Positions 2,907 through 38,720 of a stretch of 59,809 bases of DNA are shown here, one piece after another. Below the pieces are notes generated by a model that searched no databases, was not told the origin of the DNA, and worked only from the letters and a program-made list of their open reading frames with translations. Origin of the DNA: an uncultured Clostridia bacterium (GTDB lineage Bacteria > Bacillota > Clostridia > Christensenellales > DTU072); the NCBI GenBank assembly GCA_944349735.1, contig CALVNM010000003.1:1-59809 (forward strand). The letters run 5' to 3'. A program made the position numbers and the translations under genes. The stretch's first letter is position 1. Each line of letters starts with the position of its first letter.

Positions 2907-3788
2907 TTATCCGAAAAAATAGATCTCGCCGGTCACGGCGTACGTCACTACCCATAACACGCTTACGGCGACCACCTGTATCAAAAGATATATATATATG
3001 GAATACCTGCCCGGAACGGTGAGGAACCTGTTCCACTTCCCGTCGAGCCCGGGAAGAAGGGACTTCTTCTCGTTATAGAGTATCGGCGCTATGGCGGCGC
3101 CTGTCATAAAGAAACCGAAGAAAGGAAGCAGCGGGAAGTAGTCCGCCGTCCACCAGCCCTCGGTATAGAAGAACATACCCGTGACGGGAGTCGTATCCGG
3201 CACCGTGGTATATGAAGTATTGACCTCGTACAGGGTGACGTTGCAGGTATAGTTGACGATGAGGAGCGCCACGGCGCAGGCGGCGTAAACGCCCGCCTTG
3301 ATAAACCTATAATATTTACTGCGCGAAGCGGTGAGTTTCAGGAAGGCTTCGAGCACCGCGAAAAGGAGTATGCAGAGGGCAAGGCAATGCAAGACGCCGA
3401 ATTGTATATAGACGGAACCCATGTCCAGCCATTCCTGAAGAAGGTACGTTACCCCCGAAACGGCGAGCGCGACGAAAGCGAGCCTTAACCCTCGCCAAAA
3501 ATTGTTTCTGCTGAACGCCGTACAAGTTCCGGATACGAAAAAGAAAATGAACACGAATACCGGCCAGCCGAAAAGCCTCCAGTCGCTGCCCCAGTAATCG
3601 AGCGCGAATTTGCCTAACTTTATCAACGCTTCGCTTGCGGAATATTCCCAGCCGCCGGAATAGAAGATGTACCCGATAGCGTACATCGTGTGATCCCATA
3701 CGACGAGCAGTATCGCCAATCCGCGGAGCGCGTCCAATTCCCACGCGCGCGGTTTTCTCTTTTTCGTCTTCAGGGTGTCTTCGTTCAT
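2907..3788 (-). CDS. DUF1624 / acyltransferase-3-like integral membrane protein
   Basis: N-terminal ELDALRGLAILLVVWDHT motif followed by multiple hydrophobic helices. Confidence 0.65.
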   Translation of the reverse strand: MNEDTLKTKKRKPRAWELDALRGLAILLVVWDHTMYAIGYIFYSGGWEYSASEALIKLGKFALDYWGSDWRLFGWPVFVFIFFFVSGTCTAFSRNNFWRGLRLAFVALAVSGVTYLLQEWLDMGSVYIQFGVLHCLALCILLFAVLEAFLKLTASRSKYYRFIKAGVYAACAVALLIVNYTCNVTLYEVNTSYTTVPDTTPVTGMFFYTEGWWTADYFPLLPFFGFFMTGAAIAPILYNEKKSLLPGLDGKWNRFLTVPGRYSIYIYLLIQVVAVSVLWVVTYAVTGEIYFFG

Positions 3789-4579
3789 CGCCGTTCGTCT
3801 TTGTACTCTATGCTTCGGAGAGTCTTTTTCCCGCCGTCCAGATCGTACACTTCGAATCTGTCGGAGTACTCGTGTATAAGTGTGTCCGCTTCCACCGCGG
3901 AAAGGTATATCTTGGGTTCTTCCTTTATGCTTACCGCGTCGTAACCGTATACGTCGTCATAGAACGGATCGTATTCCTTCTCTTTGGCTGCGCTCGTCTT
4001 TCGGTATCCGTATATGTCGTCAAGGGTTCCCGAACTTTCGTTTTCGTCGTATACGCTTCTTCCGGCGCGCCTTCTCTGCGGGCTGTCGCTCTCTTCCCGA
4101 TACGCCTCTTTTCCCGCTTCCTTGCGAGCGCGTTCCTCGGTTATCTTCCTGCCGCGTTCTATCGCTTTACGTCTCCGTTTTTCTTCGTGTTTCTTCTCCC
4201 ACTCTGATATCTCCTCTTTTTCCTTTTCCTTCTTCTTCGCCTCGTCGTCCTGCTTTTTCCATATCGGATTGCGGAAGCCTTCGGCTACGCTCCTGAAAGG
4301 TTTGACCACCGCGTTACGCCCGAGAATTATGAGGAATATGACTACGCAGAGCGCAAAGCCCACGAGATACAGCGTCTCGTACACGCCGCCCGCGAACGGA
4401 TTAAACTGCCATACGAGATACAGCACGCCGCCGAACAGCGCGTATAAGGCGGGTACCCACAGTCCCGTGTACCACAGGATCGCCGCCACCGCCTTGGCTA
4501 TACCGAAAAGCACCGAAACCAACGCCCGCAATATCGACCCCAAAAGGAGTCCTGCGGCGCATCCCTTGACGTTTACCAT
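3785..4579 (-). CDS. Hypothetical membrane protein with a K/E/R-rich charged central region
   Basis: ORF with N-terminal TM helices. ATGA start/stop overlap with the downstream gene. No recognisable family. Confidence 0.5.
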   Translation of the reverse strand: MVNVKGCAAGLLLGSILRALVSVLFGIAKAVAAILWYTGLWVPALYALFGGVLYLVWQFNPFAGGVYETLYLVGFALCVVIFLIILGRNAVVKPFRSVAEGFRNPIWKKQDDEAKKKEKEKEEISEWEKKHEEKRRRKAIERGRKITEERARKEAGKEAYREESDSPQRRRAGRSVYDENESSGTLDDIYGYRKTSAAKEKEYDPFYDDVYGYDAVSIKEEPKIYLSAVEADTLIHEYSDRFEVYDLDGGKKTLRSIEYKDERR

Positions 4580-5863
4580 TTAACGGGTTATCTTCTCTAT
4601 GCCGCCCAGATATTTCCTCAATACTTCGGGCACGGTCACGCTGCCGTCGGCGTTCTGGAATTGTTCCACGATGGCGGGTATTACCCTGCTCGTGGCGAGT
4701 CCGGAGCCGTTCAGCGTATGGACGAACGCCGTTTTGCCGGTGGCGGAATCGCGGTAACGCGTATTGTTGCGGCGCGCCTGATAATCGTTGGCGTTGGATA
4801 CGGAGCTTACTTCCTTGTATATACCCATGCTCGGTATCCATACCTCTATGTCGTAAGTCCTCGCCATAGATGCGCTGCAATCGCCCGCGGCAAGCTTGCT
4901 GACGCGGAAATGCAATCCGAGTCCTTCAACGAGCTTTGCCGCCTTCGCGACAAGCTCTTCGAAGGCTTTGCCCGATTCGGAGGGCTTGGCGTACTGCACC
5001 ATTTCCACCTTGTTGAACTGATGTCCGCGTATCATGCCGCGCTCTTCGCTCCTGTAACTGCCCGCCTCTTTGCGGTAGCAGGGAGTGTATGCGAAAAGTT
5101 TGAGGGGAAGCATGCTTTCGTCCATTATCTCGCCTGCGTAAATATTGACGAGCGCCGTCTCCGCGGTAGGAAGCATGAAGCGGTTCTTTTTCCTGTCCTC
5201 TTCTCCCTCGAGCCAGTAAACTTCGTCCTGGAATTTCGGGAACTGCCCCGCGCCCAGTCCGCAGTTGTACCCGAGCTGATGGGGCGGCAGTATGAATTCG
5301 TAACCGTCTTTAAGATGTTCGTCGATGAAATAATTGAGGAGCGCCCATTCGAGCCTTGCTCCCATTCCGCGGTAAAGCCAGAAACCGCCGCCAGAGAGCT
5401 TGACGCCGCGTTCGTAGTCGATGAGTCCGAGATCGACGCACAGATCGACGTGGTTTTTCGGAGTAAAGGCGAATTCTGTGGGCTTGCCCACCACCTTAAT
5501 CACTTGGTTATTCTCCTTCTCGCCCGCGAGAAGATCGTCGTCGGGCATGTTGGGAAGCCCGAGAAGGAAGTCGTTTATCCTGACTTCGAGTTCAGCTATC
5601 TCCGCGTCCGCCTGCGCGATCCTGTCGCCCAGAGCGCGCATTTCCTCGAATATCTTTTCGACCGGTTCGCCGGCTTTCTTAAGCTTGGGTATCTCCGCGC
5701 TGACCTTGTTGCGCTTCGCTTTCAGCTCCTCGACGGACTGCTTGGCCGCTTTCCGCGCGGCGTCCCAGCCGAGCATTTCCGTGAAGTCGACTTCGTAACC
5801 CTTCTTCGCAAGAGCCGCGCTGACTTTGCCGCTGTCGCTTCTTATGAGATTGATGTCCAACAT
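4580..5863 (-). CDS. serS: Seryl-tRNA synthetase
   Basis: MLDINLIR start, N-terminal coiled-coil arm, class II core motifs. 427 aa. Confidence 0.95.
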   Translation of the reverse strand: MLDINLIRSDSGKVSAALAKKGYEVDFTEMLGWDAARKAAKQSVEELKAKRNKVSAEIPKLKKAGEPVEKIFEEMRALGDRIAQADAEIAELEVRINDFLLGLPNMPDDDLLAGEKENNQVIKVVGKPTEFAFTPKNHVDLCVDLGLIDYERGVKLSGGGFWLYRGMGARLEWALLNYFIDEHLKDGYEFILPPHQLGYNCGLGAGQFPKFQDEVYWLEGEEDRKKNRFMLPTAETALVNIYAGEIMDESMLPLKLFAYTPCYRKEAGSYRSEERGMIRGHQFNKVEMVQYAKPSESGKAFEELVAKAAKLVEGLGLHFRVSKLAAGDCSASMARTYDIEVWIPSMGIYKEVSSVSNANDYQARRNNTRYRDSATGKTAFVHTLNGSGLATSRVIPAIVEQFQNADGSVTVPEVLRKYLGGIEKITR

Positions 5864-10897: not shown

Positions 10898-11752
10898 ATG
10901 TTCGACAGGAGCAGAAGGACGCGGCGCGCGGGATACGACGTGGAAGGCATCGGAGAAGGCGTGTACCGCATTAACGAATATAACGTGGCGAATTGCTATC
11001 TCGTGATCGGAAGCGAAAAGGCGCTCCTTATCGACACCGGCGCGGGTGTAAACGATCTCGGTAATATAGTGACTTCGCTTGCGGGCAACAAGCCCGTGGA
11101 AGTCGCCCTTACCACGGCGCTGCCGTGGCACGCGGGCGGAAGGAGCCGCTTCGGGAAGATATATCTGTCCGAAAAAGAAATCCCCCTCCTCAAAAGATGC
11201 ACTCTCGCCGCACGCAAGGCTTATCTTGCCGGTCTCAAATTCTTCTTCCGACTCAAGGTGATACGCTTCCGTAACTGCCGATGGGTGCGCGGAGAAGAGC
11301 CGGAACGCGTGTTCGTGAAAGAAGGCGACGCCATAGACCTCGGCGGCAAGACCGTACGCGTGTACGAATCCAAAGGTATAACGCGCGGTGCGCTGAGCTA
11401 TCTAGCAGAAGAAAACAGGCTGCTTTTCGTAGGCGACACTTACAATCCCTGCACCTATCTGGGCATAAAGCGTGCGGCAAAAACGGAAGAGCTCAAAACC
11501 ACGTTGCAACGCATATTGCGCGGCAATACGTACGACGCGATATTCGCCACGCATTTCGTGGCTCCGGTGCCGCGCGACAAAGTGCAGGACGCGGTGGACT
11601 GTATCGAAAGGATAGTGCGTCACACCAACGGTCTGCCCTTTCCGCACGTCTCGAGTTACCGCGGCTACACGGTGGTGAACTGGGGACACAAGCGCAGAGT
11701 TCGCAGACACCGCCCGAAAAAATCGGAATCGGACGACTTCGCCGGCGAATAA
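10898..11752 (+). CDS. MBL-fold (metallo-beta-lactamase-like) protein with a degenerate metal-binding motif
   Basis: NCYLVIGSEKALLIDTGAG resembles MBL motif 1. The HxHxDH position reads TTALPWHAGG. SD aaggag lies upstream of the ATG. Confidence 0.55.
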   Translation: MFDRSRRTRRAGYDVEGIGEGVYRINEYNVANCYLVIGSEKALLIDTGAGVNDLGNIVTSLAGNKPVEVALTTALPWHAGGRSRFGKIYLSEKEIPLLKRCTLAARKAYLAGLKFFFRLKVIRFRNCRWVRGEEPERVFVKEGDAIDLGGKTVRVYESKGITRGALSYLAEENRLLFVGDTYNPCTYLGIKRAAKTEELKTTLQRILRGNTYDAIFATHFVAPVPRDKVQDAVDCIERIVRHTNGLPFPHVSSYRGYTVVNWGHKRRVRRHRPKKSESDDFAGE

Positions 11753-19346: not shown

Positions 19347-19387
19347 TGTGGACAACTCTGTGGAAAAGCGCTACTCATTGTGGATAA
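19347..19387 (-). promoter_or_regulatory. Three tandem same-orientation DnaA boxes
   Basis: TGTGGACAA (19347, 1 mismatch), TGTGGAAAA (19359, 1 mismatch), TGTGGATAA (19379, perfect reverse complement of TTATCCACA). Confidence 0.55.
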
Positions 19388-20215: not shown

Positions 20216-20938
20216 TCATCTTTCCGTTGTCATGTCTTCGCCGTCGTACGTGAACGGCGCGCCCGATTCGTTGAGCGACGATCTCTCTCCTCTCACTCCG
20301 AAAGTTCCGCCGCGCAACATACTGTGATAATTCCCTCCCGACACGACCAGATGATCGAGAAGAGCAACGCCTAACGGACTCAGTATCTTCCCGATAAACT
20401 CGGTGCTTCGTACGTCGCTTTCGGAGGGCGTTACGTCGCCCGAAGGGTGATTGTGTCCGAGTATCACCGCCGCGGCGTTGGTGTTGAGAGCTGCGGACGC
20501 GATCTTTCTTATCTCAACGTCGGTCTCAACGGGCGTTCCCGAATTCATCTCCCGCGTGCAGATGATCTTACCCCTGTTCGTAAGGAACACGGCTACTGTC
20601 TTTTCGATTTTCTCCCCGCCTATCAGGGCGTTGAAATACTTGGCGGCAGAGGCGGCGTCGGTTATCTTGCCGCGGTCCAGCGCGGCGTCCGTGGCGGCGC
20701 GCGTCACTATATGCCTCAGCTGCGGAAAAGTGAGCGCCGCAAGCTTGGGCATCCCCGGAACGTTGAGGAGTGCGTCTTCCGACGCGTGCAGAACGTTGTC
20801 GAGCGAACCGAATTCGTCGAGAAGCGCGTGCGCAATCGGCACGGTATCCTTCTGCGGCACGTACGGATACAGCATGAATTCCAGTATCTCGTGCGGAGCA
20901 AGTCCCTCGATACCGTTAAGATGCACCTTTTCTCTCAT
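20216..20938 (-). CDS. radC: RadC-like JAB-domain protein
   Basis: HhH-like N-terminal region and JAMM-like GHNHPSGDVTPSESD motif. Start taken at MREKVHLNG. An alternative ATG is at 20962 and the ORF extends to 21070. Confidence 0.85.
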   Translation of the reverse strand: MREKVHLNGIEGLAPHEILEFMLYPYVPQKDTVPIAHALLDEFGSLDNVLHASEDALLNVPGMPKLAALTFPQLRHIVTRAATDAALDRGKITDAASAAKYFNALIGGEKIEKTVAVFLTNRGKIICTREMNSGTPVETDVEIRKIASAALNTNAAAVILGHNHPSGDVTPSESDVRSTEFIGKILSPLGVALLDHLVVSGGNYHSMLRGGTFGVRGERSSLNESGAPFTYDGEDMTTER

Positions 20939-21084
20939 GCGTTGTCTTCTGCCTGCTCCCATAGAAGTATTCCCCGATTTACAAAATACGCCCGAATTCC
21001 TCAAGGCTACCGAAATAAATAATAACACATCGCGGTCAAAGTGTGTATAATATTTATATAATTTTCTCAAATCGGAGGTTTGCC

Positions 21085-22392
21085 GTGGATTATTTCGACG
21101 AAGCCGTCAATTGTCTTCGTGAGTTGATCGGGATCGATTCGGTACAGTCCGCTCCCGCAGCGGGCGCGCCTTTCGGCAAAGGCGTGAGAGAAGCGCTCGA
21201 CTATATGCTTAGCGTTATGGAAAAGGCGGGTTTCCGTACCTTCGTCAAAGACGGATACTACGGTTACGCCGAGATCGGCTCTGCCGATAAACCGCTTTTC
21301 GGGGTACTCAATCACCTTGACGTAGTGCCCGTAACCGAAGGATGGAGTCACGATCCTTTCGGCGGAGAGATCGACGGCGGCTGTATATGGGGAAGAGGCG
21401 CCGAGGACGACAAGGGTCCCGCGGTAGCTGCTTTTTTCGCTGCAAAAGAGCTGCTCGACGAAGGGCGCGTACCCAAAGTAAGGTTACGTTTCATACTCGG
21501 GACAAACGAGGAAAGCGGATGGAAATGCATGGATAAGTATAAAGCGAACGAGGAAATGCCCGAGACGGGATTTTCTCCCGACGCGGATTTCCCCGTAATC
21601 AACTGCGAAAAGGGCGTCGCATTCTACAACGTCCGTATGCCGCTTCCCGAAGGCATCGTATTCGTGACGAGCGGGACGCGCGCCAACATTGTGCCCGACT
21701 ACGCCGAAGCCTTGGTGAAAAGCTCCGGGTATACGACGTCCGCGGCCGAAAAAGCGGGCGCCGAATGTAGCGCTTCGGACGGCATGACCAAAATAGTCAC
21801 TCGCGGAGTTAGCGCACACGGAAGTTCGCCCCGATCCGGAGTCAACGCGCTCGTAGGTCTGTTGACAGCGCTCGGCGCGGTAAATCCGGACATAAAAAAG
21901 CTTGCCGACGCGCTCGGAAAAAGCGACGGATCCGGCTCGGGTCTTGCCTGTTCCGACAAGGAATCGGGAGCGCTCACGCTGAATGCGGGAGCCGCGCGCA
22001 CCGTAAACGGCGTGCTTTCGCTGGATCTAGATATACGTCATCCCGTCACGGTGAAGCGCGACGACGTCACCGCAAAACTCGCGGCGGCGTTGCCGTATGC
22101 GGAAGTGTCGCTCGTATCATACCACGATCCTCTGTTCGTTCCCAAAGATCATCCCCTAGTCCGCGGTCTTCTCGAAGCGTACAGAAAAGTAACGGGAGAT
22201 AAGGACGCCGAACCTATATCGATAGGCGGCGCGACATACGCGAGAGTTCTTCCGGTAGGCGTCGGATTCGGTCCCGTATTCCCGGGAGAAAAATCGTATA
22301 TACACATGCGGGACGAGCGTCTCCCGCTGGAAAGCTTCCGCAAAATGAAAGCGGTCTATAAAGAAGCGCTGTCTTTACTTTGCTTCGAGTAA
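21085..22392 (+). CDS. M20-family dipeptidase (PepV/Sapep-like)
   Basis: HLDVVPV...GWSHDPFGG...GRGAEDDKGP motifs. GTG start at 21085 preceded by GGAGG. Confidence 0.85.
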   Translation: MDYFDEAVNCLRELIGIDSVQSAPAAGAPFGKGVREALDYMLSVMEKAGFRTFVKDGYYGYAEIGSADKPLFGVLNHLDVVPVTEGWSHDPFGGEIDGGCIWGRGAEDDKGPAVAAFFAAKELLDEGRVPKVRLRFILGTNEESGWKCMDKYKANEEMPETGFSPDADFPVINCEKGVAFYNVRMPLPEGIVFVTSGTRANIVPDYAEALVKSSGYTTSAAEKAGAECSASDGMTKIVTRGVSAHGSSPRSGVNALVGLLTALGAVNPDIKKLADALGKSDGSGSGLACSDKESGALTLNAGAARTVNGVLSLDLDIRHPVTVKRDDVTAKLAAALPYAEVSLVSYHDPLFVPKDHPLVRGLLEAYRKVTGDKDAEPISIGGATYARVLPVGVGFGPVFPGEKSYIHMRDERLPLESFRKMKAVYKEALSLLCFE

Positions 22393-22415
22393 GCGACAGA
22401 ATAACTTAAAAAATT

Positions 22416-22440
22416 AACCGCCCTCCGGGGCGGTTTTAAT
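22416..22440 (+). terminator. Rho-independent terminator after the dipeptidase gene
   Basis: AACCGCCC tccg GGGCGGTT followed by TTAAT. Confidence 0.6.
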
Positions 22441-22755
22441 TACGAATACCCATAACGGACGATTGCGTACGGAAAGGAGAACCTTACGTTTTCAATTACG
22501 TTAAGCCGGTTTGCCGTCTGTCCTTATGCCGATACGGCATTACTCCCGGGAATTTCGCGCGTAGAGCGAGACCGGGGGCAAATCTACGTAAAAATCACGA
22601 GAAAACGGCTTTAAACATTGCATTTTCAGATCATTTAAAGATGTCCTATAAATCGTACTTTTATGCGATTTTGTATCAATCATCACGAATAATACCGATT
22701 TTTCAAAAACGTCGAAATTAGGCTTCAAATTGCGGCATTTTTCAAGTAAAAATTA

Positions 22756-22771
22756 TGTTCCACGTGGAACA
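22756..22771. promoter_or_regulatory. parS-like ParB-binding palindrome (site 1)
   Basis: TGTTCCACGTGGAACA is a perfect 16-bp palindrome with 1 mismatch to TGTTNCACGTGAAACA. Confidence 0.75.
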
Positions 22772-22966
22772 CTTATGTGCTTTAAATATTCGGACGAAGT
22801 TTCCCGAGGCAGTGCTTTGACCCGTAAATGAGCTGAATTATGGCTGTTTTCGTGCAAATTCATGCATTTTCAGGCACTTTTTTAAACGCAGATTTTTCGG
22901 GAGATATATGAGAAACATTCTATGAAAATCTTACCCTTTATCCCTGTTTTTTCGGCGCTTTTCCGA

Positions 22967-22982
22967 TGTTTCATATGGAACA
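22967..22982. promoter_or_regulatory. Degenerate parS-like site (site 2)
   Basis: TGTTTCATATGGAACA. The arms are conserved, but the central CACGTG is replaced by CATATG. Confidence 0.4.
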
Positions 22983-23183
22983 CGGCTCGACGCTTGTTCC
23001 GCATATTTCTTTCGCGCCGGATTTCTCTACTGTCATTCAAGCGCAAACATACAGGAAGCTATCCCTGTCCCGAATCGGGTTGATCGTTTCTTGCTCCGAC
23101 TCTCTTACGCTCCGATCTCTTCTCACGGCTCTATATATAAGATCTAACACTTTGCGGGTCTCTCCGTACGCGTGCGCGAGGCG

Positions 23184-23192
23184 TTATCCACA
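23184..23192 (+). promoter_or_regulatory. Perfect DnaA box
   Basis: TTATCCACA. Confidence 0.55.
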
Positions 23193-23313
23193 AGTTTCGG
23201 TGTTCCGCGTGTTTACATTCCTTTTTGTTTATAAATGATAATATATTCTCTTTTAAGTGTAATATTTTAACGTTTTTCTCCGTTTTATGCGTCTTTTCTT
23301 AACAATATTTTGT

Positions 23314-23329
23314 TGTTTCACGTGAAACA
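23314..23329. promoter_or_regulatory. parS site (site 3), perfect consensus
   Basis: TGTTTCACGTGAAACA. Confidence 0.85.
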
Positions 23330-23331
23330 AT

Positions 23332-23340
23332 TTATCCACA
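23332..23340 (+). promoter_or_regulatory. Perfect DnaA box, 2 bp from parS site 3
   Basis: TTATCCACA. Confidence 0.55.
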
Positions 23341-24382
23341 TTGTTTTATATCACTGCCGTTCTATGCCTTTTATCTCTTGTTATCGACTGTCTGAGGGCT
23401 AAATCATTGTACGTTCGGCGCATTGCTCGCAACGTAAGTGTATGCAAATATATTCACTTCCCCTATCCGTTCAGACTGAAAATATAATTAGCCTTTCTCT
23501 CTTTCCTTATCACGACGCACGCCGTTGATGATCGACACATCTTGCATGCCTTTATATCTTTGACGACCTATGATCCTTAAGCGAAGAAGCCGTTTACATG
23601 CCTCGAGCTGCTATTTGAATATTCAAATTTTTCCTTTTACATTGTTCGCCGCAGCCGCAGGTTATATTTACTTATATAAACATTTGACCTACGACATCAG
23701 CACTTACGGTAAAGCTTCAGCCTGTCCTTCCTGATGCGCAGTCAGTAGCGCTTGTTTATCCGGTTAACAATCAACAGGCGATCACGATAACGGCTTACAT
23801 ATAAGCCGACCTACTCTTCATTCCCCGATGTTCAGATCCGCCCTCTATCGGTTCGGTACGCGGTTATTTTCCGCATTATTTAGTGTGCATGCGCTTGCGC
23901 GCTCCGAGCTTTGTTTTCCTCCTCCGTCAGCCGACCACGGCGACGGCGAACATTCATGAATGTGCGCTACAATATAATAACTCAAAATCCCATGAGCAAT
24001 TATGCCGAGTTAAGTCGATAGCAAGTCACGGATTATCTATCGGTCGACGCCGAGTCCGTTCGTGCTTCTTACTGCGGTATCGGTCTAATGACTTCTCGAC
24101 AGACCGCGAGTATTACTTAATATGTCGGTTGAGCTTCTCAACTTATGAATCACAGCGGTACGAGAATATATAAAAACGCACGAAATCAAATACAGACCAT
24201 ACGTAATAAAGAATATCAGATCGGTTGTCAAGCATAGTACGCACCGGACATTGTCTCGGCATAAGCTAAGACCTATAGCTTATACATGGAAAGCAGCTGA
24301 AATTCTTATATAAAATCTGAAGATATTTCTATAAAAAGCAGCACCGTCCTTAGCAATTCCTCCGCGTACGCATGTAAACATT

Positions 24383-24391
24383 TTATCCACG
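24383..24391 (+). promoter_or_regulatory. DnaA box, 1 mismatch
   Basis: TTATCCACG. Confidence 0.35.
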
Positions 24392-24641
24392 GGATACAAC
24401 GTCAGAGCAAAACAACGTCTGAATACTCCCTGCATTGTGCGGCACTCTTTTATCATATATACCGGTTATAAAAGCATTCTTGCTTCTTATGTAGGCATGT
24501 AAAGTCCGAAGCCAGTATATACGCGTACCGATAGACATTATTTGTAAAGCTATATTATAGCAATTCTGCATATTTATATCAAATATGCTCTATATTATAA
24601 TAATTATGTATATATCTCATAATATATGTATAATTATACAT

Positions 24642-24657
24642 TGTTTCACGTGGAACA
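24642..24657. promoter_or_regulatory. parS site (site 4)
   Basis: TGTTTCACGTGGAACA (1 mismatch to consensus). Confidence 0.8.
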
Positions 24658-24707
24658 CTGCGACTTATATATCAAAACTATCAAATTCTGAAGATAAAAA
24701 TGACTGA

Positions 24708-24723
24708 TGTTTCACGTGGAACA
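24708..24723. promoter_or_regulatory. parS site (site 5)
   Basis: TGTTTCACGTGGAACA, 50 bp after site 4. Confidence 0.8.
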
Positions 24724-24990
24724 ATTATAATATAATCACAGAACTTGTATTTTACATTATAACAATAACGGCATAATAGTATTACTACCGTTATGATAAT
24801 AAAGAATCTGTACTCGGTTATAGATCTATACCATATGTGAAGAAAAATATAGATATACGGTTCATTTAAATAAACGCGTTATCCAATCAAAATAAGTAAA
24901 AACAACTAAAACTATATATCGTAGTCTCCATTATATTATAACACTTAAAAGTCTGACAAATTGATATGAAACACTATGTGAATTACTCAT

Positions 24991-25006
24991 TGTTTCACGT
25001 AAAACA
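24991..25006. promoter_or_regulatory. parS-like site (site 6)
   Basis: TGTTTCACGTAAAACA (1 mismatch in the core). Confidence 0.65.
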
Positions 25007-25440
25007 TCGCGTTTTTAACACTGTATGATTCATCTTAATATAAACGGTATGAAAGACGTACATAAATTTTTTTACCGGTTTTGTAATATGTGCCGAATCG
25101 TTAAACATAAACAGACTATCCGATATGCGGGTTATAAGCATATTATATTTATTTATCAACTATCCTACATATTTGATTTATTGTCTCATATAAATTAAAG
25201 TCTATACCGCATAATTAGATTGCGCGATTATATCTATACCTATTTCTATATCCATATAAAACATACAATAAATCTTGTCAGCTACTGTGATTAAACTATA
25301 GAATGATCGTCTGATAAGTATTAATATTTATCTGTAATTCTTTGTACGCTGTATTTATACTTAAAGAATATTTATCTATCAATATACATAAATTGAATTT
25401 ACACCCGTATATTATTGGCAACTAATAAAAATTTAACGAA

Positions 25441-25456
25441 TGTTTCACGTGAAACA
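25441..25456. promoter_or_regulatory. parS site (site 7), perfect consensus
   Basis: TGTTTCACGTGAAACA. Confidence 0.85.
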
Positions 25457-25657
25457 ATATAGTATTACCGGTATAATATATTAAATGAATGCTATTCTAT
25501 GATAACGTCTATACCTATAGCAAGCGTATAGACATATATAATATTATAATCGATTATAGCCGGCGACAGAAGCTGTTGAAATATTAAGAACTTTTACTTT
25601 ATAATACAATCGTTATTTTAAGTGTAGGATAAGTGAAAATTACAATTTCTGTTGCGC

Positions 25658-25673
25658 TGTTTCACGTGAAACA
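25658..25673. promoter_or_regulatory. parS site (site 8), perfect consensus
   Basis: TGTTTCACGTGAAACA. Confidence 0.85.
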
Positions 25674-25763
25674 TTTGGCGATTCTATGACGCAAGTAAAT
25701 TCACACCTTTATATCTTATAGATCAGATCTGTATACAGATATTCTGTTTACGCTGCTCAGCAT

Positions 25764-25779
25764 TGTTTCACGTGAAACA
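25764..25779. promoter_or_regulatory. parS site (site 9), perfect consensus
   Basis: TGTTTCACGTGAAACA. Confidence 0.85.
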
Positions 25780-26518
25780 AAAAACTATTTAGCTTATTTC
25801 TATGACTTATGAAATTATATTTATGACCAAATAATCTATTTACATTGTCAGATTACTTAATTATAGATTTATTTACCGTGACTTTATATTGAAATGATAT
25901 ATTAACTCTTTTCTGTTTAAATGTTTTGTAAAACGCATAACAATTTCTGCTATTACCATATAAATGATGTATGATATGCGGATAAATTATATTTTCTGAA
26001 TAAGATACGCTTATTGACCGTATTATCTTAGGCATACAAAATTAATTTGATTATAGCTCATTGACATCGGATTCATCGTTAACGCTTGTCGTAATATCTG
26101 AGTTCTATTACAAACTCACAGCATATCATACATATACAGTCTATGAACAGTTTTTCGACTATACGGGTATATTATTATAAACCGCTGCATGTTACGTGCT
26201 TTTTAGATTCAACAAATAAATATGATCTTACTTTATGCTTGTCCATATGTATTTATGCACATTATGTTTCATATATCGAATAAGTATATATGCCATATAC
26301 ATGCATATACATATTTTAGATATAGTATTTGCATATAAATTAGTGTCGTATATAATTGAGATCGTAAGAATAGGGTAATCGGAAAACATATTCCGGTAAT
26401 CGATACACTTATTTTGCTTTTATATAAACACTGTCTTATGTTATAAAACTTGAGACGACAGATCTATATCTGCTTATCCTGTATTTTTCTTCAGAAATAC
26501 GTTTTTTCCTATATTTTA

Positions 26519-26566
26519 TGTTGATAACTTGTGTTTATTGTGGATAACTCATAGGGTTTATCCACA
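26519..26566. promoter_or_regulatory. Cluster of three DnaA boxes downstream of dnaN
   Basis: TGTTGATAA (26519, 1 mismatch), TGTGGATAA (26539, perfect), TTATCCACA (26558, perfect, inverted relative to the previous box). Confidence 0.6.
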
Positions 26567-26874
26567 ATTATACTGCATTTATGTATTTTAAAAGAGAATT
26601 ATATTACTCTTTTAATTACCTTAATTTCGCTGTTTTTACAATAAAATATCTCCTCATTCCGATTTTATATATAATGCTTGCGGTCTTCCTTGTTTCGGAG
26701 CTTCATTATTGATCGTTTCTTTTTTATCCCGTATAATAGCGTTAAGTACGCCTACTTATAAGCAGTATTCTTTTCTTGTTCATTCGATATAACCTTTTAC
26801 ATCATTATGCGCCTATGCCGCGCTCGGTAAACCGATATTTTTCGTCATAATAAAAATATGATTTTCTGTTTTTT

Positions 26875-26904
26875 GCATAAAAAACCCGGCATTCTCTGCC
26901 GGGT
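26875..26904 (-). terminator. Rho-independent terminator downstream of dnaN
   Basis: Minus strand: ACCCGGCA gagaa TGCCGGGT followed by TTTTTTAT. Confidence 0.65.
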
Positions 26905-26924
26905 CTTTATTTATCTTTAATTTT

Positions 26925-28025
26925 TCAGCCTATCATTCTCAGCGGAAGGACCAGATATATATACTTTTCTCCTTCTACCGGCTTTATGACTGCGGGAGCG
27001 TTGGAACCGGTAAGATCTATTTTGATGAAATCTTCCTTTATCCTGTTGAACGCGTCGAACAGATACCTCGAATTGAAAGCTATCTCTATATCCTTACCAT
27101 CTTGCTTGGCGTCTACGGTCTCGCGTATCCTGCCTACTTCGGACGCGGAATTTATCTCTATTTTTCCGCCTGAGAACGTGAGTTTGAGATAATTTTTCTT
27201 ATTCTTCGCTACTATTGTCGCTCTGTCGAGTCCCGCTTCCAAAGCGTTCTTGTCGACCGTTATTTCGGTATTCTTGGTCTGAGGAAGTATCTTTTCGTAT
27301 TGGATAAAATCTCCTTCGAGAAGCCTCGTTATTATCTTCGTGTGTCCCATGTCGAACATCACGAAGTTTTTCTGAACGGCAACTTTTACTTTCTCGTCGT
27401 TATCGCCGAATACTTTGGTTATCTCGTTGAGCGTTTTTCCGAGCACGACGATACTCATGTCTCCGATAGAATTGAAAACTTCGCTTTTCGTGATGCCGAG
27501 TCTGTATCCGTCGAGTGCCGCACAGGTCATTTCTTCGCCTTTTACGGCTATCTGGCAGCCTTTGAGTATCGGTCTCGTATCTTCCTGTGAAACGCAGAAT
27601 ATGACGCCTTCTATGGCTTCCTTGAGGTCTCTTTCTCTTACCAGGAAGCTGTTTTCGTCGCTTACCGTTTTTATCTCGGGATAAGTATCGTCCTCCATGC
27701 ACTGGAATTCCGATTCGTTGCCTTTATATCTCACTACCAGAGAAGTGGAATATTTCTCGAGTTCTATTTCCTCTACTTCGACGAGCTTCTTGACAAATTC
27801 GGTAAATAGTTTACCGGTTACGACCGTTTCTCCTTCCATTTTTACGCTCGCCTTTATTCTTGTCTCTATGAAGAGATCGAGATCGGTTGCGGAAAGGGTC
27901 ACTTCATCTCCCGAGGCGCTCATTTTGACGCCTTCTAGAATAGGAATATTGGTCTTACCGGAGATCGCCTTGCTTACAGTGATCAACGCTTCAGATAACT
28001 CTGTGGAATTGGCGATGAATTTCAT
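26925..28025 (-). CDS. dnaN: DNA polymerase III beta sliding clamp
   Basis: 366 aa. MKFIANSTELSEAL... three-domain clamp. Located directly downstream of dnaA. Confidence 0.95.
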   Translation of the reverse strand: MKFIANSTELSEALITVSKAISGKTNIPILEGVKMSASGDEVTLSATDLDLFIETRIKASVKMEGETVVTGKLFTEFVKKLVEVEEIELEKYSTSLVVRYKGNESEFQCMEDDTYPEIKTVSDENSFLVRERDLKEAIEGVIFCVSQEDTRPILKGCQIAVKGEEMTCAALDGYRLGITKSEVFNSIGDMSIVVLGKTLNEITKVFGDNDEKVKVAVQKNFVMFDMGHTKIITRLLEGDFIQYEKILPQTKNTEITVDKNALEAGLDRATIVAKNKKNYLKLTFSGGKIEINSASEVGRIRETVDAKQDGKDIEIAFNSRYLFDAFNRIKEDFIKIDLTGSNAPAVIKPVEGEKYIYLVLPLRMIG

Positions 28026-28071
28026 ATACTTCTCCTTATTTATAATTAAGTTTTATTATTATAATAACCGT

Positions 28072-28205
28072 TGTGGTTATGTGGATTACTTATCCGAAAC
28101 GGCGTCACCGATGCGAATAAAAGGCGAAACCGAGGGAATAAGAGGCATTTCGTATGGGAACGATGTTGATAAATGCGGTCGATATATGTTGATACGTTAT
28201 CCACA
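28072..28205. promoter_or_regulatory. DnaA-box cluster in the dnaA-dnaN intergenic region, next to an AT-rich tract (28033-28068)
   Basis: TGTGGTTAT (28072, 2 mismatches), TGTGGATTA (28080, 1 mismatch), TTATCCGAA (28090, 2 mismatches), TGTTGATAA (28164, 1 mismatch), TTATCCACA (28197, perfect). Confidence 0.55.
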
Positions 28206-28281
28206 TCCTCACATTTGTCCCGAAAGGGGTTTTTTACCTGCGGTAAAAGACTCTTTCCGATAACGCCGTCACAGAGAAAAA

Positions 28282-29667
28282 TCACGCGTTAAGGGAATTC
28301 TTGATGTCCTTGACCGCTTTGGCAGTCTCGGCGTTTTCCTTTATAAGTCCTGCTATTTTGTCTCTTGCGTGTATTATTGTGGTATGATCCCTCCCGCCGA
28401 ATATCTGTCCGATCGAAACGAGCGGAAGCGACAGCATATCGTTGATTATATAGATAGCTATCATTCGGGCTTCGACGAGGTTTTTGGTCTTTTTCTTACT
28501 GATTATATCCGCCTGCGAAATATTGAAATATGAGCACGTTGCGGCTATTATGTCCGAAGAGTCGATTCCCGTCTTTTTCTGAACTGTATTTTTGAGAGCT
28601 TCCTTAGCCGTCTCGAGGTCGGGATAAGGCAGACCTTTAAGCTTCGCGTAGAAGATGACTTTAGCAAGGCTTCCTTCGAGTTCCCTGATGTTGGAGTCTA
28701 TCTTTTCGGCAAGATAATTGACTACGTCGTCGTTGACGGCGATTTTCTCGAGTATCATCTTTTTGCGGATTATGGCTATCCTCATCTCGAGATTCGGTGC
28801 CCCGATGTCGGCAATCAGTCCTCCTTCAAATCTCGAACGCAAACGGTCTTCGAGAGTAGCTATCTCCGACGGAGGTCTGTCCGAAGTAAGTACTATCTGT
28901 TTTCCTGCCTGGTATAAATCGTTGAAAATATGGAATACGACTTCCTGGAGTCCTACGCGCTTCTGGAGAAACTGAACGTCGTCGAGCATGAGCATATCGA
29001 CGGAACGGTATTTCTCGCGGAAGGAGTGGAGATTGAAAGCGCCTTTGTCGGTGCGGTTATTGGAAATAGCTTCTACGTAGTCGTTAGTGAGCTTTTCCGT
29101 AGGGGTGTATAAGACCTTGAGATGGGGAAGATGCTCGCTTACGTAATTTCCTATCGAATGGAGAAGATGCGTTTTTCCTAGTCCCACTCCGCCGTAGAGG
29201 AAAAGAGGATTGAACGAGAGATATACGTTATCGGATACTCCCGGAGATTGTGCGACCGATTGAGCCGCGTGGAATGCGAGTTTATTGGATTCTCCCACTA
29301 CGAAGTTGTCGAAAGTATATCTCGAGATGAATTGACTTTTACTCTCGCCGGATTGCTCGGACGCATTGTCTTCCGAGCTGTATTCTTCTATCTCTTTGGA
29401 ATAAAATTCCTTCTCTTCCTCGGTGATAACTGCAAATTCCGTTATCATGCTGCCCGTGCGCTCGAGAGCGGTGCGGATAGCGTCTTTATATGTTTTATTA
29501 ACGGTGAGTTTGTTATTCGACGAAGGAGCGAGCAGGATAAGAGTATTATCCTTAACGCAAACCGGGGTGAGAGAATCTATCCATACGGAATAAGCGATAG
29601 CGTTCACACCTTTTATCCCAATGATATTCGAGCAGGCGTCCTGCCATAATTTACGGATGTCGATCAT
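28282..29667 (-). CDS. dnaA: Chromosomal replication initiator protein DnaA
   Basis: 461 aa. AAA+ Walker A GGVGLGKTHL, and the C-terminal DNA-binding signature IGQIFGGRDHTTIIHA. Confidence 0.97.
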   Translation of the reverse strand: MIDIRKLWQDACSNIIGIKGVNAIAYSVWIDSLTPVCVKDNTLILLAPSSNNKLTVNKTYKDAIRTALERTGSMITEFAVITEEEKEFYSKEIEEYSSEDNASEQSGESKSQFISRYTFDNFVVGESNKLAFHAAQSVAQSPGVSDNVYLSFNPLFLYGGVGLGKTHLLHSIGNYVSEHLPHLKVLYTPTEKLTNDYVEAISNNRTDKGAFNLHSFREKYRSVDMLMLDDVQFLQKRVGLQEVVFHIFNDLYQAGKQIVLTSDRPPSEIATLEDRLRSRFEGGLIADIGAPNLEMRIAIIRKKMILEKIAVNDDVVNYLAEKIDSNIRELEGSLAKVIFYAKLKGLPYPDLETAKEALKNTVQKKTGIDSSDIIAATCSYFNISQADIISKKKTKNLVEARMIAIYIINDMLSLPLVSIGQIFGGRDHTTIIHARDKIAGLIKENAETAKAVKDIKNSLNA

Positions 29668-29675
29668 ATGGAAAT

Positions 29676-29684
29676 ATTATATCA
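29676..29684 (-). promoter_or_regulatory. Candidate extended -10 element (TGaTATAAT) ending 8 nt before the dnaA ATG
   Basis: Minus strand reads ttaTGaTATAATatttccatATG. No Shine-Dalgarno sequence is visible upstream of dnaA. Confidence 0.35.
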
Positions 29685-29789
29685 TAAAGCTCTAAGGAAT
29701 ACAAGGAAAAAAGAGAGTATAAGAGTATCGGTAAAACTCGCGGCGCGCGCATGCGCCCGTGCAATTCGTCCGCGCCGGATAAAAGCGTA

Positions 29790-29818
29790 TTTACAATATT
29801 TACGCCGTGTGGTAAAAT
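29790..29818 (+). promoter_or_regulatory. Candidate promoter TTTACA-17-TAAAAT (with TGg extended -10) ending 6 nt before the ATG at 29825
   Basis: TTTACAatatttacgccgtgTGgTAAAATcggattATG. Confidence 0.4.
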
Positions 29819-29824
29819 CGGATT

Positions 29825-31534
29825 ATGGTAGATATAAAAAAGATAAAAAGAAAGCTCGTAAAAGCGGGATACCCTCTGATAGAAGCGAGCCTTAAGAACG
29901 GGAGCGTCGTCCTGAGCGGAGAACTGGAAGATTACGAAGGGATACTCGAATGCGGAACCATAGCGGTATGCAAAGAATCTCGCGGAGTCGTAAACGATAT
30001 AAGGCTGAAAGGATACGCGCCGGAGAAGATGAGAATATGTCCCGTCGAAGACAAAGCATACGACGGGGAATCGCCTGACGTACTAGTCATAGGCGGCGGA
30101 ATAGTTGGAGCCGCCATCGCAAGGGAACTGACAAAATACGCGCTCACCGTCACCGTTCTCGAGAAGGAATACGATATAGCGACCGGTCAATCGGCTCGAA
30201 ACGACGGAATGATACACGCCGGAATCGACCTTAAGCCGAGCAGTATAAAAGTAAAATATAACGCGCGCGGTAACGCGATGTATCCCCGGATAAGCAAGGA
30301 ACTCGACGTACCCATAGAGATGTGCGGGCAATGCGTGCTTTATACCAAGAGATGGCAGAAGCTGCTTTTCCCGTTCATCAAAGCGCGCGGAGCGAAAAAC
30401 AACATCCCGGTAGAGAAACTCGGCCCCGAAGAAGTTAAAAAATACGTCCCCGAACCCGGGATAAAATACGGAGGATTCATGTGTCCTTCTGCGGGTATCC
30501 TGAGTCCTTATCAGATGACGGTGGCTTTTATGGAAAACGCCGTAAATAACGGGGCAGTACTCCATACGGATACGGCGGTCACGGGAATAGATAACGACGG
30601 GGAGAAGATAACCGCCGTAAGGACGAACCGCGGTACATTTTATCCCAAAGCGGTGGTGAACGCGGCGGGCATATATTCCGACGTGATAGCGGAATGGGCG
30701 GGAGACAGGCATTTCACGATACATCCGAGGAGAGGAGTGGAAGCCGTTCTCGACAAGAAGGCGAAGAAAGCGACTTCCGCCGTCATCGGAAAATTCGTCA
30801 TAAAAAGCAGTACCGGCAAAGGGCATACCAAAGGCGGCGGCGTGATAGTCACCGTAGACGGGAATATTCTGCTCGGACCGAGCGCGAAAGAAACGCCCGA
30901 AAGAGAGAACGAAGCCACTGTGCCCGAGGAATTCGAGGAGATGATAGCAAAGCAGTTCAAGCTTGCGCCGAAGCTGAAGAGGTCTGATATAATCACATAT
31001 TTCGCGGGGACGAGAGCGGCTACTTACGAGGAAGAATTCGTAGTGGAAAAAAGCCCCGTCGTCAGGAACTTCGTACAGGCTGCGGGGATACAGTCTCCCG
31101 GCGTCACTGCGGCTCCCGCGATAGCGGAAGACGTGGGAAAATGGGTCGCGGAGATAGTGTTCGGCAGCGACGTAAAATATAATACAAATTTCGATCCGAT
31201 AAGAAAAAGAATCCCGAAACCTTCTGAAATGTTACCCGAAGAAAGGAAAAAACTTATTGCGGAAGATCCGGATTACGGCGTCGTGATATGTCGGTGCGAG
31301 GAAGTGACCAAAGGAGAGATCAAAGAGGCTCTCCGCCGTCCGGCGTCGGTACCCGCCGTCGACGCGGTGAAGAGAAGAGTACGCGCGGGAATGGGTCGTT
31401 GTCAGGGAGGATTCTGCAGTCCTCTTGTCATGAAGATAATATCCGAAGAGTGCGGAATACCTCTCGATAAAGTAAGGAAGAAAGGTGCCGGAAGCGAAAT
31501 AGCGTTCCGCTACACCAAAGGCGGAGACAGATGA
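29825..31534 (+). CDS. FAD-dependent oxidoreductase, GlpA/LhgO-like, with a C-terminal BFD-like [2Fe-2S] domain and a ~67-aa N-terminal extension
   Basis: DVLVIGGGIVGAAIARELTKY dinucleotide motif. CRCEEVT...GMGRCQGGFC BFD-like Cys pattern. Alternative internal start at MRICPVED. Confidence 0.8.
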   Translation: MVDIKKIKRKLVKAGYPLIEASLKNGSVVLSGELEDYEGILECGTIAVCKESRGVVNDIRLKGYAPEKMRICPVEDKAYDGESPDVLVIGGGIVGAAIARELTKYALTVTVLEKEYDIATGQSARNDGMIHAGIDLKPSSIKVKYNARGNAMYPRISKELDVPIEMCGQCVLYTKRWQKLLFPFIKARGAKNNIPVEKLGPEEVKKYVPEPGIKYGGFMCPSAGILSPYQMTVAFMENAVNNGAVLHTDTAVTGIDNDGEKITAVRTNRGTFYPKAVVNAAGIYSDVIAEWAGDRHFTIHPRRGVEAVLDKKAKKATSAVIGKFVIKSSTGKGHTKGGGVIVTVDGNILLGPSAKETPERENEATVPEEFEEMIAKQFKLAPKLKRSDIITYFAGTRAATYEEEFVVEKSPVVRNFVQAAGIQSPGVTAAPAIAEDVGKWVAEIVFGSDVKYNTNFDPIRKRIPKPSEMLPEERKKLIAEDPDYGVVICRCEEVTKGEIKEALRRPASVPAVDAVKRRVRAGMGRCQGGFCSPLVMKIISEECGIPLDKVRKKGAGSEIAFRYTKGGDR

Positions 31535-37177: not shown

Positions 37178-38485
37178 ATGAAAAGATCGGTAGAACAATC
37201 GGGTAAGTGGTACAGGATGGACAACTCGGCGGATATTTATCCGATGAGCAGTACTCTTACGACGATGAGCATATTCCGTCTGTCCGCCGAAATGGAAGAG
37301 TACGTCGACGGCGACAATCTCGAGGCAGCCGTAGCCGCCGTACTCAAACGTTTCCCGACCTTCGCCGTAACTTTGCGCAGAGGCTTTTTCAGGTATTATT
37401 TCGACTCCAACGAACTTCCGCCAGTAGTAAGACAGGATAACGGTATTCTTTTCGACAAGATCGATTCCGTGAGGAACAACCGTTATCTTTTCCGCGTGCA
37501 GTATTACAAGAAGCGCATCTCGGTGGATTTTTTCCACGGGCTGTGCGACGCGAGCGGCGCGATGGAATTCATGAGATCGCTCGTATACCGCTATCTCGAC
37601 GAATGCGGCAAGACGCTCCCCGATCACGGCGACGTCAAGATAGAAGGGGAGCCGGTACGCGAAACGGAACTCGAGGACAGCATTTCCAAGTATTACACTC
37701 AATACAGTATTTTCGGCGGCGTGGTAGGCAAAATGGCGGGTAAAAACTGCTTCGGTATCCGCGCAAGGAAATTCCGCTCCATAGGCTACGGACTCATACA
37801 CGGATACGTATCGCAGGAGGAACTTCATTCGCTTGCGCGGAGCATGGATTGCACCGTCACGGTGCTTATCGCGGCGATAGCCCTGCTGAGTATCTGCAAA
37901 GTTTACTGCAAGCGCGACACGAGCCGCGATCTCGTCGCCATGATACCCGTCAACCTCCGTAAAATATTCCCCTCGGAAACGCTTCTCAATTTCACCACGC
38001 TCACGAAGTGCGCCGTGAATCCCGCAAGCACCCCGAGAGAGCTTAAGTATTACGTCAGGCTTTGTAAAGCGCAGCTTGCCGAGAGTTTGTCCGCAAGACG
38101 CGAACTCGCCGAAAAGCTCTCCCTTTCCGCCTTCTATTCGACCAACAAGCTGATGAAGATACTTCCGGTATGGCTCAAGGAATTTTTCATCAAATTCGGC
38201 AAAGCCGTAACCACTCAGACCAAACAGACGCTCATTATATCTAATCTCGGCGTGGTGAAGATGCCCGAAGGCATGGAAAAATTCCTCAGGAGGTTCACTT
38301 TCAACATAAACATAAGCAAGAAAGTCCCCGTGAATATAGGCGTAGTGAGTTATAACGGCGTCACGGCTATAAGCTTTACGCGCATGCTCGTGTCGACGGA
38401 ACTGGAGAGGGAGTTTTTCACCACGCTTACGGACGCGGGACTGAAAGTGGAGATCTCCGGCAACCTGAGAGAGCGCGCGAACTGA
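37178..38485 (+). CDS. Condensation/alcohol-acetyltransferase-like acyltransferase (HxxxD superfamily)
   Basis: FFHGLCDASGAMEF resembles the HHxxxDG catalytic motif. 435 aa. The start is uncertain (no clear SD). Confidence 0.5.
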   Translation: MKRSVEQSGKWYRMDNSADIYPMSSTLTTMSIFRLSAEMEEYVDGDNLEAAVAAVLKRFPTFAVTLRRGFFRYYFDSNELPPVVRQDNGILFDKIDSVRNNRYLFRVQYYKKRISVDFFHGLCDASGAMEFMRSLVYRYLDECGKTLPDHGDVKIEGEPVRETELEDSISKYYTQYSIFGGVVGKMAGKNCFGIRARKFRSIGYGLIHGYVSQEELHSLARSMDCTVTVLIAAIALLSICKVYCKRDTSRDLVAMIPVNLRKIFPSETLLNFTTLTKCAVNPASTPRELKYYVRLCKAQLAESLSARRELAEKLSLSAFYSTNKLMKILPVWLKEFFIKFGKAVTTQTKQTLIISNLGVVKMPEGMEKFLRRFTFNINISKKVPVNIGVVSYNGVTAISFTRMLVSTELEREFFTTLTDAGLKVEISGNLRERAN

Positions 38486-38536: not shown

Positions 38537-38720
38537 TTCGGGTATTTCTTGCGTCTCGGCGGAACGGATTCTCGCGTGTGCGCTACGTACGCGAGCGCGC
38601 GCGTTCTTAATATATACTAATTACTAAAATTTACTATACAATATTTTATTTATGTGATATTATATCCGTATGCGGGGTATCCTTTAGTGACGCCCGGCAA
38701 AAAGAAAGAGGAGCATTTAT

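Follow-up and report, generated by a model that had tools for sequence, protein, structure and literature searches.

A multi-kilobase gene-free tract beside dnaN, very probably an origin-adjacent parS centromere, in an uncultured Clostridia bacterium

The DNA analysed here is a 59,809-nucleotide stretch of contig CALVNM010000003.1 (assembly GCA_944349735.1) from an uncultured gut Clostridia bacterium, which homologues of DnaN place near Christensenella-like lineages; this whole 59.8-kb stretch is referred to as the window, and all coordinates are counted over it. Its subject is the gap between an M20 peptidase gene and dnaN, referred to as the tract, which holds an array of candidate parS sites together with DnaA boxes. 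The tract extends over 22393–26924, between the peptidase stop codon at 22392 and the dnaN stop codon at 26925, and comprises 4,532 bp in which no open reading frame (ORF) reaches 100 aa, ~16 times the length of the next-largest gap of this kind in the window (287 bp). Pfam searches confirm the flanking genes as those of the M20 peptidase, DnaN and DnaA, and place YidC, Jag, MnmE and MnmG at the far left, followed by an amidase, RadC, the M20 peptidase, the tract, DnaN and DnaA, and then by a glycerol-3-phosphate-dehydrogenase-like gene on the plus strand. The tract was originally described as lying where gene orientation flips; it is indeed next to the switch, but not on it, as the switch falls at 29668–29824, upstream of dnaA, and the tract itself is flanked by two convergent genes. 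The terminators reported on both sides were found as hairpins at the tract edges:

22416–22435, left edge: intrinsic-terminator hairpin of the M20 peptidase gene, with an 8-bp stem (6 GC pairs) and a T run after it
26884–26904, right edge: intrinsic-terminator hairpin after dnaN

The ORFs of the tract measure 62, 90, 96, 62 and 60 aa, as first listed, and the maximum of 96 aa is a chance length when set against the 84 ± 17 aa obtained in shuffled tract sequence. The GC fraction is 0.418 at 22441–24550 and 0.275 at 24551–26874, which bears out the proposal that the tract consists of two modules, and the same two-part composition is seen again in relatives; the counts of 10 and 14 G+C nucleotides in the 60-nt lines starting at 25141 and 24601, respectively, are exact. 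By comparison, ordinary intergenic spacers of the window have GC fractions of 0.43–0.57, and typical genes ~0.55. The single least stable 60-bp duplex of the entire window lies outside the tract, at 38606–38665 in the spacer upstream of gyrB. At third codon positions, dnaN and dnaA (26925–29667) have GC fractions of 0.53–0.54, against 0.57–0.71 in eight other genes checked (six of them at 0.65–0.71), and the drift towards AT appears to extend past the tract into the origin genes.

The whole window was searched, allowing up to three mismatches, with the palindrome TGTTTCACGTGAAACA, the published consensus of parS, the binding site of ParB/Spo0J (PMC7383237). Nine matches were found, all of them within 22756–25779, where 0.15 would be expected by chance and none of 100 shuffles reached nine. 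Four are perfect, three carry one mismatch, one carries two, and the match at 22967 carries three; the 16-bp inverted repeats of the tract also match the consensus in the form TGTTNCACGTGAAACA (PMC7383237). The sites and two larger segments of the tract are given below, where L-numbers denote loci of relatives or strains:

22756–22771: parS TGTTCCACGTGGAACA, a variant at permissive positions 5 and 12; L002, L008 and L017 have the same variant in the orthologous position
22967–22982: parS-like palindrome TGTTTCATATGGAACA, three mismatches, with the central CG changed to TA; its core TTCCATATGGAAC is kept in L002 and L008
23314–23329: perfect parS, part of a composite with a DnaA box
23341–24641: parS-free segment of 1.3 kb and ~41% GC, with a counterpart of 1.7 kb in L002 and L008
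24551–26874: AT-rich core, 27.5% GC, with six parS sites and a triad of DnaA boxes
24642–24657: parS TGTTTCACGTGGAACA, identical in strain L016
24708–24723: parS TGTTTCACGTGGAACA, identical in strain L016
24991–25006: parS TGTTTCACGTAAAACA, one mismatch; L016 has the consensus G at 25001 and the window an A
25441–25456: perfect parS TGTTTCACGTGAAACA
25658–25673: perfect parS
25764–25779: perfect parS

In seven of the eight sites with two or fewer mismatches, any change is confined to positions 5 and 12, which are permissive. The site at 24991 departs from this pattern with a change at position 11, and here the A of the window would most simply be a derived change. Spacing between sites is irregular, from 66 to 1328 bp, at about one site per 380 bp over 3 kb, and the site nearest to dnaN is 1.1 kb from that gene and ~2.3 kb from the dnaA-dnaN spacer. 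Sequences flanking the sites are at best 63–81% alike, and Tandem Repeats Finder detected four short arrays (23–34 bp) but no regular array in the tract. In an unbiased k-mer comparison of the four long tracts (those of the window, L002, L008 and L017), parS and the DnaA box were the sole families enriched in all four. As read from its sequence, the tract carries eight canonical 16-bp parS palindromes and one conserved variant within 3.0 kb of protein-free DNA bounded by a terminator on each side. It is very probably the chromosome's origin-adjacent centromere of ParB sites, set in gene-free DNA and fused to a module of DnaA boxes. The original prediction had offered three roles without ranking them; of these, an expanded oriC/centromere platform is the one that the nine parS sites, which had escaped notice, and the clusters of DnaA boxes bear out, and neither a long non-coding RNA nor the remnant of genes after dnaN found support, as described below.

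The DnaA boxes of the tract and its surroundings are as follows, and four of the six perfect boxes (TTATCCACA) of the window are inside the tract:

23184–23192, plus strand: perfect DnaA box TTATCCACA
23314–23340, plus strand: composite element, formed by the perfect parS at 23314–23329, 2 nt, and a perfect DnaA box at 23332–23340
24383–24391, plus strand: DnaA-like box TTATCCACG, one mismatch
26519–26566: DnaA triad of TTATCAACA (minus), TTATCCACA (minus) and TTATCCACA (plus) with a fixed 10–11-nt spacing, the core of module A (26507–26643)
26590–26614: inverted repeat AAAAGAG-N11-CTCTTTT, ~24 nt from the triad, with arm columns largely invariant in seven genomes
28026–28281, minus strand: dnaA-dnaN spacer, outside the tract, with DnaA boxes at 28197, 28164 and 28080
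19347–19387, minus strand: three DnaA boxes ~200 bp upstream of rpmH

The composite is seen in four lineages (window 23314–23340; L002 15645–15676; L008 7933–7964, 4474–4506 and 4629–4661; L017 5183–5217), in each case with the DnaA box 2–10 nt from parS and on a constant side and in a constant orientation, suggesting a conserved composite element that may bind both DnaA and ParB. The triad, with its fixed spacing, is kept in seven genomes, the most distant at 56% DnaN identity, and has the make-up of a DnaA-box cluster or datA-like site, defined as at least three consensus-like boxes within ~50–100 bp and outside the unwinding element. The adjacent AAAAGAG-N11-CTCTTTT repeat looks like a putative site for a dimeric binding protein.

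The tract was expected to lie at or next to the replication origin, and this is upheld by the adjoining dnaN and dnaA, by the conserved spacer between them, and by a minimum of cumulative GC skew near 28.0 kb (27.9–28.1 kb on a fine scale), a measure with a resolution of ~1 kb that is confounded by gene strand. GC skew is negative throughout the tract, with no switch in it. In the dnaA-dnaN spacer, DnaA boxes are followed by a short GC spacer and TAT/AAT trinucleotide repeats, and an AT-rich run precedes the start of dnaN. This architecture is conserved in seven genomes and fits the rule for the basal unwinding system (BUS), namely a box, a spacer of up to 16 bp and at least three NAN trinucleotides (PMC8287927). 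No clear NAN run stands beside the triad of the tract; the NAN pattern is weak evidence in AT-rich DNA. Because the BUS layout and the skew minimum sit in the dnaA-dnaN spacer, where a 60-mer at 28007–28066 also ranks among the least stable of the window, the unwinding site is most likely there, 1.1 kb from the tract. The three boxes at 19347–19387 are upstream of rpmH, which was recognised from its translation on the minus strand at ~19.05–19.15 kb, and they are probably the ancestral rpmH-side box cluster of oriC, which today lies at a distance of 9 kb from dnaA; inverting ~19.4–29.7 kb once would give back the canonical order of rpmH and dnaA-dnaN.

These features bear on the proposal that the tract is mainly an oversized oriC, in which the AT-rich core is an unwinding and helicase-loading region organised by DnaA boxes and the parS sites are secondary passengers. 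parS sites are often near oriC. The share of perfect DnaA boxes held by the tract and the fixed spacing of the triad speak for such an origin, as do the absence of any DnaA-box cluster upstream of dnaA and the low duplex stability of the tract, which contains 12 of the 15 least stable 60-bp windows of the 59.8 kb (11 of them in the AT-rich core), one of these (26567–26626) being beside the triad. Nevertheless, a complete unwinding module, conserved across the clade, is already present in the dnaA-dnaN spacer, the fine-scale skew minimum is outside the tract, and known origins need a few hundred bp rather than 4.5 kb. Since, in addition, the parS sites outnumber the DnaA boxes and rise in number with tract length, an oversized origin is an improbable account of the tract.

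The dependence on length emerges from the relatives, in which the order dnaA-dnaN-[gap]-M20 peptidase-radC-amidase-rnpA-yidC-jag-mnmE is held in seven lineages, while the gap itself varies 18-fold in size (parS counted at two or fewer mismatches):

L003 and L006: gap of 309–316 bp, 2 parS
L025: gap of 1146 bp, 2 parS
L024: gap of 1548 bp, 3 parS
L017: gap of 2484 bp, 5 parS
Window: gap of 4532 bp, 8 parS
L008: gap of 5539 bp, 9 parS
L002: gap of 5706 bp, 9 parS

Over the seven lineages the number of parS sites rises with gap length (Spearman 0.98). All parS sites of these loci fall within the gap, save for one site with a single mismatch after gyrA in L003 and L006. This extra site, TGTTTCACATGAAACA, is found just after gyrA at 11286–11301 in L003 and at 10413–10428 in L006, and sites are more dispersed in these short-spacer relatives. 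A scan of metagenome contigs with DnaN brought up only two loci, neither of them close. The layout is the same in lineages of only 56–59% DnaN identity, and the order of parts counted from dnaN is conserved: the terminator; the inverted repeat and DnaA triad; an AT-rich zone that holds six or seven parS sites; a parS-free zone of 1.3–1.7 kb (~41–50% GC); the composite of DnaA box and parS; the parS variant TGTTCCACGTGGAACA, invariant in form and set among A-tracts phased at ~11 bp; and the peptidase terminator. Because a relative keeps the same junction with a spacer of only 0.3 kb, the comparison argues that the long tract would be a ~15-fold expansion, within the clade, of an old parS-bearing spacer and not a set of ruined genes. 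L008 contains a perfect 55-bp direct repeat (4458–4512 and 4613–4667, 155 bp apart) that adds one parS and an adjacent TGTGGACAA box with respect to L002; either local duplication would be one route by which the array grows, or the repeat may be an assembly duplication.

Sequence conservation within the tract is concentrated at the predicted binding sites. The window and L002 share 76–79% nucleotide identity in the flanking genes, and the tract is mostly unalignable between them, except at the parS sites, the DnaA module (26507–26643) and a further block, module B (22636–22960). L002 and L008 are closer, with genes 84–94% identical without indels and a tract 78% identical with ~80 indels, mostly of 1–2 bp; over eight aligned pairs of parS sites, 125 of 128 columns are identical, against the tract background of 78%. 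Between the window and strain L016, the tract has diverged by 1.95% as compared to 0.4–0.7% for dnaA and dnaN (3–5 times faster), and the single difference in a parS site is the one at position 25001 of the 24991 site. This comparison of sequences indicates purifying selection on the parS sites and not on the spacer sequence.

Such rapid turnover raises the question of whether the spacer is functionless filler, that is, neutral DNA brought in by duplication and insertion and not yet deleted, with a function for the parS sites and DnaA boxes alone. The failure of the spacer to align between species, its small indels, its fast divergence between strains, the visible tandem duplications and the 18-fold range of gap length are all in keeping with filler. 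Against it, gaps of 1.1–5.7 kb persist at the same junction in at least five lineages, though bacterial genomes usually lose unconstrained DNA, and the order of parts is conserved from the triad through the AT-rich parS zone, the GC-richer parS-free zone and the composite to the parS site in phased A-tracts. In every lineage the GC content of the gap is also lower than that of the remaining locus, by 10–21 points, and the tract of the window is well under ordinary intergenic GC, which suggests a compositional constraint or a special local mutation regime. Filler is consequently regarded as a rather doubtful, but not negligible, explanation of the spacer.

The further conserved block, module B, is the following:

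22636–22960: module B, a ~320-bp conserved block around the peptidase-proximal parS, with A-tracts phased at ~11 bp

Module B aligns with L002 and L008 at the nucleotide level and, with tblastx matches in every frame, is not coding; its AA/TT dinucleotides show an 11-bp periodicity (z 13–14), making intrinsically bent DNA possible at the outer edge of the array. The corresponding segment in L002, L008, L017 and L024 shows an AA/TT periodicity of 10.5–12.75 bp. Conservation of this block between species, together with 30 promoter-like hexamer pairs in the tract, could be taken as a sign of long non-coding RNAs (one or several) encoded in the tract, a role originally put forward, or of small proteins. 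However, the promoter count is within 1.4 standard deviations (sd) of that in shuffles (23 ± 5), and covariation terms from RNAalifold on module B are positive, at +2.4 and +1.6 kcal/mol on the two strands, lending no support to a structured RNA, although three sequences give this test little power. Rfam 15 at gathering thresholds returned no match in the whole window; ranked by E-value, three chance-level matches were obtained in the tract, the best at 32.7 bits against a gathering threshold of 54 and the next at 23.9 against 51.8. A scan of the window for tRNA and tmRNA genes found nothing. The sequence outside the protein-binding motifs, as noted above, does not align between species.

Evidence for proteins was equally lacking in the tract. 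In every 600-bp window of the tract the period-3 power has a z-score of −1.4 to +1.4, as compared to 27–31 in the peptidase gene, dnaN and dnaA, and a Pfam search of six-frame tract translations with stops masked as X gave only one chance match (RanBP1, E = 0.22). A phmmer search with the 96-aa ORF against 1.84 billion representative proteins gave one spurious match, to a tandem-repeat translation, and no real homologue. With tblastx, matches between the tract and those of relatives fell at shared places whatever the frame, a sign of nucleotide rather than protein conservation. Comparison of tract ORFs between lineages by tblastn found them frame-broken or absent, with ORFs of L002 split across frames in L008, and the ORFs of the window are without a counterpart in the relatives. 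The parS-free segment at 23341–24641, taken separately, has neither coding periodicity nor a Pfam relic. With no conserved ORF, no period-3 signal and no RNA family, an encoded RNA or small protein is very unlikely.

Decay of genes normally found after dnaN had also been suggested, and to this can be added a degraded mobile element or an artefact of assembly. The left half of the tract, with a GC fraction of 0.42 and strand skews like those of the neighbouring minus-strand genes, is what one might expect of former genes, and many metagenome contigs break here. A pseudogene or gene relic was rejected on the absence of Pfam matches, of period-3 signal, of frame-preserving evolution and of ORF homologues. 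The genes gyrB and gyrA commonly follow dnaN in this group. In the window both are intact elsewhere, at 38.7–43.2 kb; a more distant relative has only a 309-bp spacer at the junction, and the same layout recurs at 56–59% DnaN identity. Distant blastn comparisons of the tract with plasmids and phages gave no match. The concern that the tract is an assembly chimera is answered by three independent assemblies from other samples, all collinear with the window. L030 (Logan assembly, run ERR4096406) forms a single high-scoring segment pair over window 20519–27057 at 98.85% and covers the whole tract, L016 is collinear with 23946–30440 at 98.6%, and L031 with 20789–23634 at 99.6%. Decayed genes, a mobile element or an artefact are therefore hardly credible as the source of the tract.

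At least nine metagenome contigs of the clade (among L001, L009, L010, L011–L013, L016 and L027–L029) terminate inside the AT-rich tract or at its edge. Because contigs often break there, the region may easily be missed, and AT-rich regions of this kind are probably lost systematically from short-read metagenome-assembled genomes and under-reported.

Under the preferred interpretation, that of an origin-adjacent centromere, the working of the tract can be outlined from established ParABS biology. ParB (Spo0J) dimers would load at each parS, close into clamps bound to cytidine triphosphate (CTP), and slide onto nearby DNA (PMC7333895, PMC7022226). The loaded ParB would build one large partition complex over the spacer, which ParA would move and which would recruit SMC to the origin region. 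Many close loading sites in a transcription-free spacer may allow a high local density of ParB to be reached without ParB colliding with RNA polymerase. For the DnaA boxes of the tract, we infer two candidate roles. They could belong to a bipartite oriC on both sides of dnaN, as its second arm, with the dnaA-dnaN spacer and its likely unwinding element as the first; or they could be a DnaA-titrating cluster linking the control of initiation to the ParB complex. The array may have grown from a spacer of ~0.3 kb with 2 parS sites by spacer gain and local duplication, with the spacer sequence evolving almost freely.

Several observations weigh against this interpretation. No parB or parA was found in the window or in the relatives' loci examined, by a motif scan only, and a cognate ParB is assumed. 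Nine 16-bp sites account for 144 bp and not for 4.5 kb, and one parS suffices for segregation in studied species (PMC7022226, PMC7083940), so that neither the number of sites nor the length of the spacer is explained by necessity. The 1.3-kb segment of ~41% GC inside the tract holds no parS, and the right half, at 27.5% GC, is far under the 43–57% of ordinary intergenic DNA in the same window, neither of which a centromere accounts for. Finally, promoter-like sites are not depleted in the tract, transcriptional silence being deduced solely from the terminators and the absence of genes.

A regional centromere would be a more far-reaching interpretation, possible but tentative. Here the gene-free, AT-rich spacer would itself be under selection, as a transcription-free reservoir of ParB-CTP clamps and a loading pad for SMC whose capacity scales with the number of parS sites; function and layout would be kept while the sequence turns over fast and the size expands from 0.3 to 5.7 kb, and the composites of DnaA box and parS, together with the triad, would couple the control of initiation to segregation. 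In this the tract would be like eukaryotic centromeres, and origin and centromere would make up a single organelle flanking dnaN. That freedom from genes and AT-richness are themselves selected is speculative.

The usual picture of parS is of single 16-bp points, isolated from one another and dispersed among genes. Clusters bound by ParB/Spo0J are known near some origins: Corynebacterium glutamicum has ten sites in 35 kb, of which nine are intergenic (PMC7083940), and Pseudomonas aeruginosa has the origin-proximal parS1–4 (PMC4368675). The tract shares with these clusters the 16-bp consensus and the presence of several copies near oriC, and its role would by analogy be expected to be the same, namely nucleation of ParB, segregation of the origin and loading of SMC. 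However, in clusters of the C. glutamicum type the sites lie among genes over tens of kb, whereas the tract has 8–9 sites in one 4.5-kb intergenic region, a density ~10 times higher. Unlike the known clusters, the tract also contains no genes, has a terminator at either end, is strongly AT-rich and joined to a DnaA module, and varies 18-fold in size within its clade. Full-text searches of the literature found no description of a multi-kb gene-free parS island, nor of the origin of this clade. The C. glutamicum cluster is the closest documented case found, and the tract would be an unusually large, dedicated variant of such a centromere.

Iterated centromeres are familiar from plasmids, in which sopC of F consists of 12 tandem 43-bp repeats and parC of R1 is similarly iterated, as regular tandem arrays of up to 0.5 kb. 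Like sopC and parC, the tract is a dedicated non-coding array of multiple sites for a partition protein, predicted in the case of the tract; unlike their identical head-to-tail units, its sites are spaced at 66–1328 bp and are of the chromosomal parS type, which sets it apart from this class. The bipartite oriC of Bacillus subtilis with its BUS (PMC8287927, PMC6669920) resembles the locus in the layout of the dnaA-dnaN spacer and in having a second box cluster nearby. In B. subtilis, however, the second cluster is upstream of dnaA, and here it is downstream of dnaN at the tract edge, and the rpmH-side boxes lie beyond the tract, at a distance of 9 kb; the BUS model needs no tract. B. subtilis also possesses DnaA-box clusters (DBCs) close to oriC that restrain initiation together with Spo0J/Soj, in a genetic interaction with the ParB system (PMC3245932). 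The tract boxes are like DBCs in being consensus boxes outside the unwinding module and close to oriC, but they differ in being interleaved with parS sites, one of them only 2 nt away, and titration of DnaA by them is putative.

The tract bears on the general questions of why bacteria keep several parS sites and what the surrounding DNA contributes. At a single fixed junction, the clade presents a natural series of spacers of 0.3–5.7 kb with 2–9 parS sites, which could separate the effects of site number, spacer length and absence of transcription on ParB loading, clamp sliding and SMC recruitment. Because of this size series, the tract would be of greater interest still if the spacer proves to be functional.

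Elsewhere in the window, two ORFs have no Pfam family at the thresholds used, one at 37178–38485 (435 aa, plus strand) and one at 3785–4579 (264 aa, minus strand). At the left edge of the tract, a 22-nt inverted repeat with TCCCGGGA cores (22278–22299 and 22532–22553) brackets the stop codon and terminator of the peptidase gene, and the TCCCGGGA core is similar to the central part of the site bound by Noc, TATTTCCCGGGAAATA (PMC7383237).

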